Positions 7,143 to 7,307 of a stretch of 36,090 nucleotides of DNA are shown piece after piece. Position numbers and translations under genes: made by a program. Source of the stretch: Parachlamydiales bacterium (GTDB taxonomy: Bacteria; Chlamydiota; Chlamydiia; Chlamydiales; Parachlamydiaceae). The first letter of the stretch is position 1. Every line of letters starts with the position of its first letter. The DNA lies in NCBI GenBank assembly GCA_020051075.1, contig JAGVJP010000081.1:1-36090 (forward strand). The letters are read 5' to 3'. Below the pieces are notes generated by a model. The model made no database searches. It had not been told where the DNA came from and worked only from the letters and a program-made list of their open reading frames with translations.

Positions 7143-7307
7143 ATGTTTAATAACCAGTTTTCTGACGAAGAGGATTTCGACGCGGAAGAAGAATTAGATG
7201 ATTTCGGTGACGAAGACGAAGATGAAGATTTAGATGAGGATGATGAAGACTTTGAAGACGATGAAGACTTTGAAGACGATGATGACTTTGAAGAAGAAGA
7301 AGACTAA
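7143..7307 (+). CDS. Small hyper-acidic protein (54 aa; 38 Asp/Glu), absent from the ORF track
   Basis: RBS GGTGAGGT just upstream of ATG 7143. Translation MFNNQFSDEEDFDAEEELDDFGDEDEDEDLDEDDEDFEDDEDFEDDDDFEEEED, TAA at 7305-7307. Variation falls at third codon positions (GAT/GAC, GAA/GAG). Followed by a strong hairpin. Confidence 0.85.
   Translation: MFNNQFSDEEDFDAEEELDDFGDEDEDEDLDEDDEDFEDDEDFEDDDDFEEEED

Follow-up and report, generated by a model that had tools for sequence, protein, structure and literature searches.

The polyacidic ORF and its neighbours

The window, by which we mean the whole 36,090-nt stretch of Parachlamydiaceae DNA that was analysed, carries the genes prfC, phytase and suhB on the minus strand in that order, with a short polyacidic ORF on the plus strand between the last two (Table 1). 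No gene follows the ORF on its own strand, the next gene being that of the convergent phytase, whose predicted product matched the NCBIfam XopH model with an E value of 2.4e-53, below the cut-off of that model. A scan of the plus strand upstream of the ORF called no sigma-70-like promoter.

Table 1. Features of the window around the polyacidic ORF
Feature	Position	Strand	Remarks
suhB-type inositol monophosphatase	6163..6975	-	Pfam PF00459, E 1.6e-63; divergent from the ORF; synteny anchor
Shine-Dalgarno-like motif GGTGAGG	7131..7137	+	5 nt before the ATG of the ORF
Polyacidic ORF	7143..7307	+	54 codons and TAA stop; 54 aa; net charge -38
18-nt tandem repeat	7242..7305	+	3.6 copies, 91% matches; encodes EDFEDD repeats; last third of the ORF
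Palindrome, 27-bp stem	7336..7403		Arms 7336-7362 and 7377-7403; -58.7 kcal/mol, z -9.55
PTP-like phytase, XopH-like, predicted signal peptide	7481..8425	-	Pfam PF14566, E 1.1e-32; convergent with the ORF
prfC (release factor 3)	8433..10037	-	Pfam; outer anchor of the block (tblastn synteny)

The ORF translates as MFNNQFSDEEDFDAEEELDDFGDEDEDEDLDEDDEDFEDDEDFEDDDDFEEEED, in which 38 of the 54 residues are acidic (21 Asp and 17 Glu) and Lys, Arg and His are all absent. Its hydrophobic residues, seven Phe (positions 2, 6, 12, 21, 37, 43 and 49) and two Leu (18 and 30), are spaced 3-9 residues apart when counted on the translation, and the peptide has no signal peptide. A preliminary description of this DNA had reported the same acidic count, the lack of basic residues and the spacing of Phe and Leu, all of which our counts reproduced, and the strong ribosome-binding site that it proposed corresponds to the Shine-Dalgarno-like motif of Table 1.

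The acidic codons are GAA (15), GAG (2), GAT (11) and GAC (10), a usage that is unremarkable given that GAA and GAT are each the choice in 67% of cases in the genome's long ORFs. Synonymous codon variation had also been put forward as a sign of coding selection. Such variation is present, but the part of the ORF encoding the EDFEDD repeats is a recent 18-nt tandem duplication and these repeats are therefore not independent evidence of selection; a 6-nt tandem repeat is also present at the tract. In a strain about 94% identical, found in DNA runs of water metagenomes, an additional GAA is inserted in frame after position 7289 and the frame is kept, and the sole nearby non-coding indel is a 1-nt intergenic insertion at 7057. 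Since slippage in a triplet repeat would by itself preserve the frame, such in-frame indels are weak evidence for coding.

A composition scan of the 2.94-Mb genome found just 16 stop-to-stop frames that reach at least 60% Asp and Glu over 30 residues. This rarity, along with positional counterparts in 11 other genomes, makes the polyacidic frame at 7143-7307 more than a chance occurrence. Two other frames were considered and set aside. An antisense ORF at 7147-7551 (minus strand, 134 aa), which crosses a dispersed repeat, is open because GAN codons yield no stops on the complement, and was rejected. An acidic frame on another contig of the same genome (C1) lies antisense to a 994-aa ORF and was discarded as a paralogue.

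Counterparts beside suhB in related genomes

The preliminary description had suggested looking for synteny near suhB across the chlamydiae, and the outcome was positive within a subclade of the same taxonomic family, where 11 other genomes have a small acidic ORF at the same place, divergent from suhB. The conserved block runs prfC-(phytase)-methyltransferase-acidic ORF-suhB and is present in G007, G011, G018, G113, G176, G189, G209, G225, G226 and G231. The phytase gene sits at the same place in G018 and G231, and in G018 and G011 the small acidic ORF has a Shine-Dalgarno motif and is followed by a methyltransferase gene encoding 173-179 aa. In one further genome (G003) prfC borders directly on suhB and nothing separates the two.

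To put a frequency on this arrangement we considered 44 methyltransferase loci of the family, made up of 43 of its 44 methyltransferase-bearing genomes (G017, a partial match, was left out) and G209 from a sample of the order. In 11 of these loci, those of the ten genomes above and of G200, the methyltransferase gene has an acidic ORF immediately before it on the same strand; ten are clear and the eleventh, in which the tract has decayed (G225), is weak. All but one of the 11 have prfC, suhB or phytase alongside, the exception within its range being G200. The remaining 33 loci have neither an acidic ORF upstream nor any of these three genes alongside, although two of them, with less than 500 nt of upstream DNA, could hardly be judged. 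Among 24 loci from other families, none has a stand-alone acidic ORF upstream of the methyltransferase gene.

An SD-like motif (purine-rich, resembling GAGG or GGAG) precedes the start codon by 5-9 nt in all 12 forms, that of G189 (AAAGGA) being weak. When core and lead were delimited by a rule of 70% Asp and Glu over 10 residues in the 11 forms tabulated (G225 was left out), the simple forms had an acidic core of 41-71 aa and G200 one of 105 aa, with 73-88% Asp and Glu in ten forms and 59% in G200, and 1-8 aromatic residues per core. The core of the window form, at 48 aa, is of a length typical of the protein family, and contains 79% Asp and Glu and five aromatic residues. Net charge ranges from -32 to -63 among the simple forms, with -21 in G209 and -46 in G200, both of which have long basic or polar flanks; the raw translation of the G225 frame resembles this pattern.

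Core length and charge are conserved, but outside the core there is little in common. The ORFs span 54-227 aa, and their N-terminal leads (6-87 aa) and tails cannot be aligned, even between G113 and G189 of the same genus, so that the lead is not a conserved sequence feature. The window form is the shortest of the 12 and lacks the lead of 15-87 residues seen in the others, having just six; the other short extreme is the G011 form (61 aa, lead 15), which does have the methyltransferase gene. What is conserved is acidic composition, position and ribosome-binding site only. The Asp/Glu frame has been maintained across genera whose SuhB proteins are 52-61% identical.

Two members have been called by annotation pipelines, as hypothetical proteins of two Protochlamydia genomes. 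The G200 form is WP_068470872.1 of Ca. Protochlamydia phocaeensis. Over the part that aligns, PRO82_000169 of Ca. Protochlamydia amoebophila (113 aa) shows 96% identity to the G113 ORF. A comparison of the two sequences by eye shows agreement at almost every one of the first 60 residues and in the tail (...EDFETE.EEENIFRFSLAA), with an acidic tract that has 23 residues fewer in PRO82_000169, so that the frame has been kept through a tract of variable length. Named protein matches of this kind place the subclade to which the family appears confined among the relatives of Protochlamydia.

Sequence searches and the coding status of the ORF

Sequence searches with the peptide recovered none of these counterparts. 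Neither Pfam nor NCBIfam holds a family for it, a six-frame HMMER search of 41 genomes returned the peptide itself and one match with an E value of 2 within a 412-aa frame, and a search of 5.8 billion protein clusters gave 690 candidates of which none scored. The best score in the ESM Atlas was 0.88, under the 0.9 lead level. The ORF had been described as unannotated, and indeed no exact match is present in the public protein sets searched (about 15 billion predicted proteins), where an exact look-up of eight peptides of the family found two. Scans anchored on SuhB were similarly empty: genome contigs gave 42 loci (best identity 49%), none of the three taken as chlamydial having an acidic ORF beside suhB, and metagenome contigs gave 80 loci (best 48%) and no close strain. 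By these searches the product appears to fall outside every named family.

These null results also bear on whether the ORF is a gene at all. A GA-rich triplet-repeat tract upstream of suhB might be open in one frame by accident, and the 18-nt and 6-nt tandem repeats, the lack of any match in Pfam, NCBIfam and the protein clusters, the dropping by RefSeq of pc1575 (the positional counterpart in P. amoebophila, considered below) and the fact that GAN-rich DNA is automatically open on antisense frames too are all as such an accident would have them. We nevertheless regard it as very unlikely, given that an ATG with a properly spaced SD motif is found in 12 of 12 genomes, that the Asp/Glu frame is held over 41-105 codons across genera of considerable SuhB divergence, that the flanking coding parts stay in frame between two P. 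amoebophila-type sequences and that two homologues were called by annotation pipelines.

The ORF at 7143-7307 is thus probably a real protein-coding gene, which is much the best reading because synteny, SD motifs, conserved core, in-frame flanks and annotated homologues come together. Its retention in the window, although the neighbouring methyltransferase gene was not found in this genome, further supports its reality. On the comparisons above it is the shortest member of a lineage-restricted, uncharacterised polyacidic family with a core of 41-105 residues.

The palindrome downstream of the ORF

The preliminary description had the ORF followed by a hairpin. A hairpin with a 27-bp stem is there, but it is no private terminator: the sequence at 7336-7403 is one copy of a dispersed REP/MITE-like palindromic element with 256 loci, spread over 71 contigs, in this genome. 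Metagenome contigs break at the palindrome, where their depth, otherwise about 5-15, reaches about 900-1800. With a T-run on each strand the element may still terminate transcription in both directions, that of the ORF and that of the convergent phytase gene; a simple terminator scan did not call the hairpin. The repeat occupies the spot where relatives carry the methyltransferase gene.

The methyltransferase of relatives and the Hc1 homologue

In G018 and G011 the gene that follows the acidic ORF encodes a protein with an N-terminal transmembrane helix and a class I methyltransferase domain. Of 200 genomes sampled from the order 89 have this methyltransferase, as do 44 of a further 60 taken from the family, and there is no clear copy in the genome of the window (best E value 0.34). 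Its best solved relatives are crenarchaeal aKMT structures (5fa8, E 1.8e-14; 5jwj, E 6.2e-14), and it matched the NCBIfam model for archaeal protein-lysine methyltransferase (NF041081) at an E value of 9e-14, below cut-off; it resembles aKMT. In the part of a review used here (PMC9006661), aKMT is described as a lysine methyltransferase of broad specificity, its distant homologues FAM173A/B have a transmembrane domain before the methyltransferase domain, and the reference list names the chromatin proteins Sul7d and Cren7 as aKMT substrates.

In three genomes of another family the methyltransferase gene is preceded by one for a Mip-like FKBP with an acidic C-terminal stretch of about 70 residues. 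This is a second, independent juxtaposition of an acidic tract with the methyltransferase. Descent of the ORF from such a tail was rejected as the ancestral state, as just 3 of 67 loci have a Mip gene upstream and these three belong to a single genus.

The chlamydial nucleoid protein Hc1, to which the preliminary description had drawn attention, is relevant to this organism in that the genome of the window encodes a homologue (PF07432, 77 bits) of 114 aa with a K/A-rich tail, on contig C11. Hc1 is, as far as is known, pan-chlamydial and spread far more widely than the acidic ORFs. A complex prediction of the 114-aa Hc1 with the peptide, run without controls, gave no verdict for or against binding (score 0.00), with a pLDDT below 50 for the peptide.

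Expression

Among the contigs listed for metatranscriptome run X4, parts of suhB, phytase and prfC are covered; over the ORF the run gave only short fragments whose loose ends lie at 7253 and 7285, which leaves its expression neither demonstrated nor refuted. Run X12 gave a single 180-nt piece, in suhB.

More can be said of a relative. The part of Konig et al. (2017; PMC5451489) used here gives the gene order in P. amoebophila as prfC (pc1573), an MTS-domain protein (pc1574), pc1575 and suhB (pc1576), with strand-specific read counting. There pc1575 is a 'putative uncharacterized' protein that has no Pfam entry and no RefSeq tag, is EffectiveT3-negative, was not detected in the EB proteome and belongs, like pc1574, to the expression class late II. 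Its log2RPKM is 7.4-7.9 at 2 hpi, falls to 5.9-7.0 at 48 hpi and is higher again at 96 hpi (7.2-7.5) and in extracellular bacteria (7.4-7.7), its mRNA lying 4-8 fold above that of pc1574. The same source places hctA (pc1545) in the 'mid' class with values of 9.7-11.8 and a peak at 48 hpi, so that pc1575 mRNA is about 16-fold below that of hctA and lowest when hctA is at its maximum. No printed characterisation of pc1575 was found in the literature searched. In the P. amoebophila-like genome G113 the gap between the methyltransferase gene and suhB holds, among ORFs of at least 50 aa, the acidic ORF and an overlapping same-strand frame only. Gene order, strand-specific counts and the content of this gap together make it very probable that pc1575 reports transcription of the acidic ORF, an equation that rests on the gene order and the G113 gap.

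Translation of the acidic tract

According to the part of Chadani et al. used here (bioRxiv 10.1101/2021.02.02.429294), N-terminal sequences rich in Asp and Glu make E. coli ribosomes abort, the more so at low Mg2+; a preceding chain of about 30 residues counters the effect, as do a few bulky residues; and the destabilisation serves sensing in that organism. A lead of at least about 30 residues is found in 9 of the 11 orthologues, whereas in the window form the Asp/Glu run begins at residue 8, the configuration most prone to abortion in E. coli. As bulky residues counteract intrinsic ribosome destabilisation, the regularly spaced aromatics may be, at least in part, a feature that maintains continuity of translation. 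The short lead and the acidic tract bear also on two other explanations, a poorly translated relic and a translational leader or sensor.

According to the first of these, the family may have a function in other genomes, but the ORF in this one is a marginal remnant of the core, which has lost its lead and the methyltransferase gene, has acquired a repeat on its downstream side and yields little protein or none. Being shorter than the other 11 forms, with a lead of six residues where they have 15-87, it looks the part, and so do the dispersed repeat at the expected site of a methyltransferase gene of which the genome has no clear copy, the abortive effect of N-terminal Asp/Glu runs in E. coli, the recent 18-nt repeat that makes up a third of the ORF and the lack of an RNA contig covering it among those listed. 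Against a relic stand an ATG, SD motif and open frame that are all intact, a core length typical of the family, a frame kept through a 3-nt indel in the strain that is about 94% identical and the similarly short G011 form, whose genome does have the methyltransferase. We consider it unlikely.

A translational sensor would turn the same property to use. Mg2+-dependent destabilisation of the ribosome, in the manner of MgtL, would set expression of the methyltransferase in relatives, and the window form would be a vestige. It would account for the occurrence of an acidic tract upstream of the methyltransferase gene in two unrelated settings (the 11 small-ORF loci and the three Mip-like FKBP tails), for the inverted repeat that follows the stop codon of the ORF in several loci and for the excess of pc1575 over pc1574 mRNA, and it has a precedent in the use of such destabilisation for sensing in E. 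coli. The leads of most orthologues are, however, of the length that suppresses the effect in E. coli, the ORFs of 54-227 aa are far longer than known leaders, the window has no same-strand gene downstream for a leader to control, and the C-terminal tail is kept in frame between two P. amoebophila-type sequences. Such a sensor is in our estimation quite unlikely.

Possible role of the product

Our working hypothesis starts from the composition of the peptide. The product would be an intrinsically disordered polyanion of net charge -38 that works through charge and not through a fold, and it may bind, buffer or compete off lysine-rich basic proteins. Its prime candidate partner would be an Hc1-type nucleoid protein, for which it could serve as a polyelectrolyte competitor much as prothymosin-alpha does for linker histone H1; in relatives it may act in partnership with the adjacent aKMT-like protein-lysine methyltransferase, and the scattered bulky Phe and Tyr residues would let the ribosome translate the Asp/Glu tract. 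The only contextual support for a lysine-rich partner is that in relatives the polyanion adjoins a putative lysine methyltransferase, that both are late II and that both occur in organisms that condense their DNA with lysine-rich proteins; this is guilt by association. The Asp/Glu-dominated composition, the pLDDT below 50 of the peptide and the presence in the genome of an Hc1 with a K/A-rich tail are consistent with such a mechanism.

Several observations pull the other way. The acidic family is found in 11 of 44 loci of one taxonomic family, against the far wider distribution of Hc1; pc1575 mRNA in the data of PMC5451489 used here is about 16-fold under that of hctA and dips at its 48-hpi peak; and the methyltransferase that motivates the link to lysine was not found in the genome of the window. 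Against the reading as a whole there are also the non-detection of pc1575 in the EB proteome and its want of a RefSeq locus tag, as given in that same material, as well as the abort-prone start of the Asp/Glu run in a form without the lead of 15-87 residues. Action on lysine-rich proteins with Hc1 as prime candidate is accordingly put forward as a tentative proposal, one to which we give less than an even chance. A fuller version, in which a disordered microprotein analogous to prothymosin-alpha, ancestrally paired with a membrane-anchored aKMT-like methyltransferase, would control Hc1-type proteins at the EB/RB transition with its aromatics aiding translation, we hold to be unlikely.

Two other roles for a polyanion deserve mention. 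With 38 carboxylates per 54 residues the peptide could store or buffer Mg2+, Ca2+ or polyamines at the late or elementary-body stage; its positional orthologue pc1575 is expressed late II, and its neighbours are phosphatases acting on inositol phosphates. SuhB-type inositol monophosphatases are Mg2+-dependent. Such a buffer seems improbable to us, since it would have no EF-hand or other ordered site, a moderate mRNA level would provide little buffering capacity, the block contains no transporter or metal gene and the spacing of the aromatics would be left unexplained. The second possibility is a secreted effector, delivered to the amoeba, where its targets would be histones of the host or further basic proteins. 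In eukaryotic chaperones the motifs that bind histones are acidic stretches with Phe or Tyr anchors, which the peptide resembles, and the neighbouring XopH-like phytase has a predicted signal peptide. Many type III substrates are found among late genes in the part of PMC5451489 used here. Nevertheless pc1575 is EffectiveT3-negative in that source, the N-termini are not conserved in the family, and the window form has no signal peptide and only seven residues before the tract, which leave no room for an N-terminal secretion signal, so that a role as an effector is highly improbable.

Significance and comparison with known systems

If the peptide is made and acts by charge as in our preferred reading, it would join a very small number of bacterial proteins described as stand-alone, disordered polyanions. 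Routes in print for chlamydial nucleoid handling, to judge from the titles of the reports, are the small RNA IhtA and an IspE-dependent control, and if our proposal is true the peptide would be a candidate protein factor alongside them. The pairing of the family with an aKMT/FAM173-like methyltransferase that is widespread in the order offers a testable lead on chlamydial protein lysine methylation, and the family offers a natural system in which to study how extreme Asp/Glu tracts are handled by ribosomes. In more general terms, composition and synteny have brought to light a gene family that sequence searches miss and annotation pipelines have in part dropped.

The nearest comparisons are with pc1575, PRO82_000169 and WP_068470872.1, with which the window form shares position, strand logic, SD motif, a poly-Asp/Glu core of about 45-105 aa and scattered aromatics. 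It differs from them in being a core only, without the lead of 30-90 aa, the C-terminal tail or the downstream methyltransferase, and nothing can be aligned between them outside the low-complexity tract.

Among characterised proteins, the delta subunit of Firmicute RNA polymerase has a C-terminal tail that is likewise a disordered tract rich in Asp and Glu, for which mimicry of nucleic acid has been proposed. The N-terminal part of delta is a folded domain; the window peptide has no such domain, has no Pfam match and has seven residues before its tract. DNA mimics such as Ocr, ArdA, DMP19 and SPO1 Gp44 are strongly negative and could fill the sites at which basic proteins bind DNA, as the peptide might. 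Known DNA mimics are mostly folded, with their charges on a rigid surface; the peptide is of low complexity, has a pLDDT below 50 in the complex run and matches no family. Leaders of the MgtL type resemble it in being rich in Asp and Glu right after the start codon. MgtL itself is 17 aa long, and the ORF of the window, about three times longer, has bulky residues interspersed and no same-strand gene downstream. Prothymosin-alpha and H1 form an established disordered polyelectrolyte complex, as the sources used here have it. Searches of Pfam, NCBIfam and proteins gave no homology between the peptide and prothymosin or parathymosin, and the peptide is shorter (54 aa), aromatic-bearing and bacterial, with Hc1 binding hypothetical; like prothymosin-alpha it is nevertheless small, very acidic and presumably fully disordered, and its genome has in the H1-like Hc1 a candidate partner.

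Gene order and repeats around suhB

The interval between prfC and the acidic ORF, where the window carries a phytase gene, is occupied by such a gene also in the chlamydial genomes G018 and G231, and the gene is absent from that position in most relatives. Among NCBIfam models, the phytase matched best to XopH, a family of type III effectors (E 2.4e-53), with a score below the cut-off. The neighbour of suhB is conserved, being a 300-aa protein in the window with homologues of 415–429 aa in G011 and G018; because of this difference in length, the window copy lacks the N-terminal third of these homologues. 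No Pfam or NCBIfam family was found for the 300-aa protein, the C-terminus of which reads ...GSSYRPDNI...FIDTEYP..GPD...YWD.L.KNG. In genome G003 (L004 3-2295), prfC and suhB lie immediately next to each other on the same strand; the phytase, the methyltransferase and the acidic ORF are all missing from the gap between them, and prfC is apparently split into two frames of 251 aa and 219 aa.

The 27-bp-stem palindrome downstream of the acidic ORF is a dispersed element, located genome-wide at 256 loci on 71 of the 133 contigs of G000, the window's own genome. Two further copies lie within the window, near 3004-3059 and 3329-3376, and metagenome assemblies break at this repeat.

Features in the window and in the genomes compared
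Feature	Location	Strand	Description
Palindrome, REP/MITE-like	window 7336-7403		perfect, 27-bp stem; core CAGGATAGGCAGGATCGCTTCG + complement
PTP-like phytase	window 7481-8425	-	signal peptide
300-aa protein	window 5192-6094	-	homologues L032:6782-8071, L033:3125-4372
Second stand-alone small acidic ORF	G000:C36:1719-2120	+	hydrophobic N-terminus MFMLMFPISVLIFSLVSIF..., long D/E tail
457-aa protein	G000:C105:10623-11997	+	~60-aa acidic insert with DEDF-type repeats
Methyltransferase gene, ~175 aa	L033:5563-6084 (G011); L032:4110-4649 (G018)		N-terminal TM helix + class I methyltransferase domain
Mip-like FKBP isomerase, genus g76 (another family)	L046:355-1449; L050:481-1458; L052:510-1478		signal peptide + ~70-aa acidic C-terminal tail

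Other acidic tracts and the methyltransferase

The D/E tail of the second small acidic ORF of G000 terminates in ...DDDDW, and the palindromic repeat recurs approximately 300 nt downstream of this ORF. The C-terminal end of the 457-aa protein may be a type III secretion SctQ/SpoA-type domain. The sole match of the 54-aa peptide of the window in another genome was weak (E=2), to a 412-aa frame of G034 (L002); this frame is similar to the 457-aa protein.

Of 200 genomes sampled across the order, 89 carried the methyltransferase gene; it was not found in G000. In genus g76, the Mip-like FKBP gene is located directly upstream of the same methyltransferase at all three loci tabulated; here an acidic tract, the tail of the isomerase, is independently paired with this gene for a second time. 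The P. amoebophila counterpart, pc1574, belongs to the late II expression class. The closest solved structures are those of crenarchaeal aKMT, a broad-specificity protein-lysine methyltransferase, and the mitochondrial FAM173A/B proteins are similar in architecture to the chlamydial gene product.
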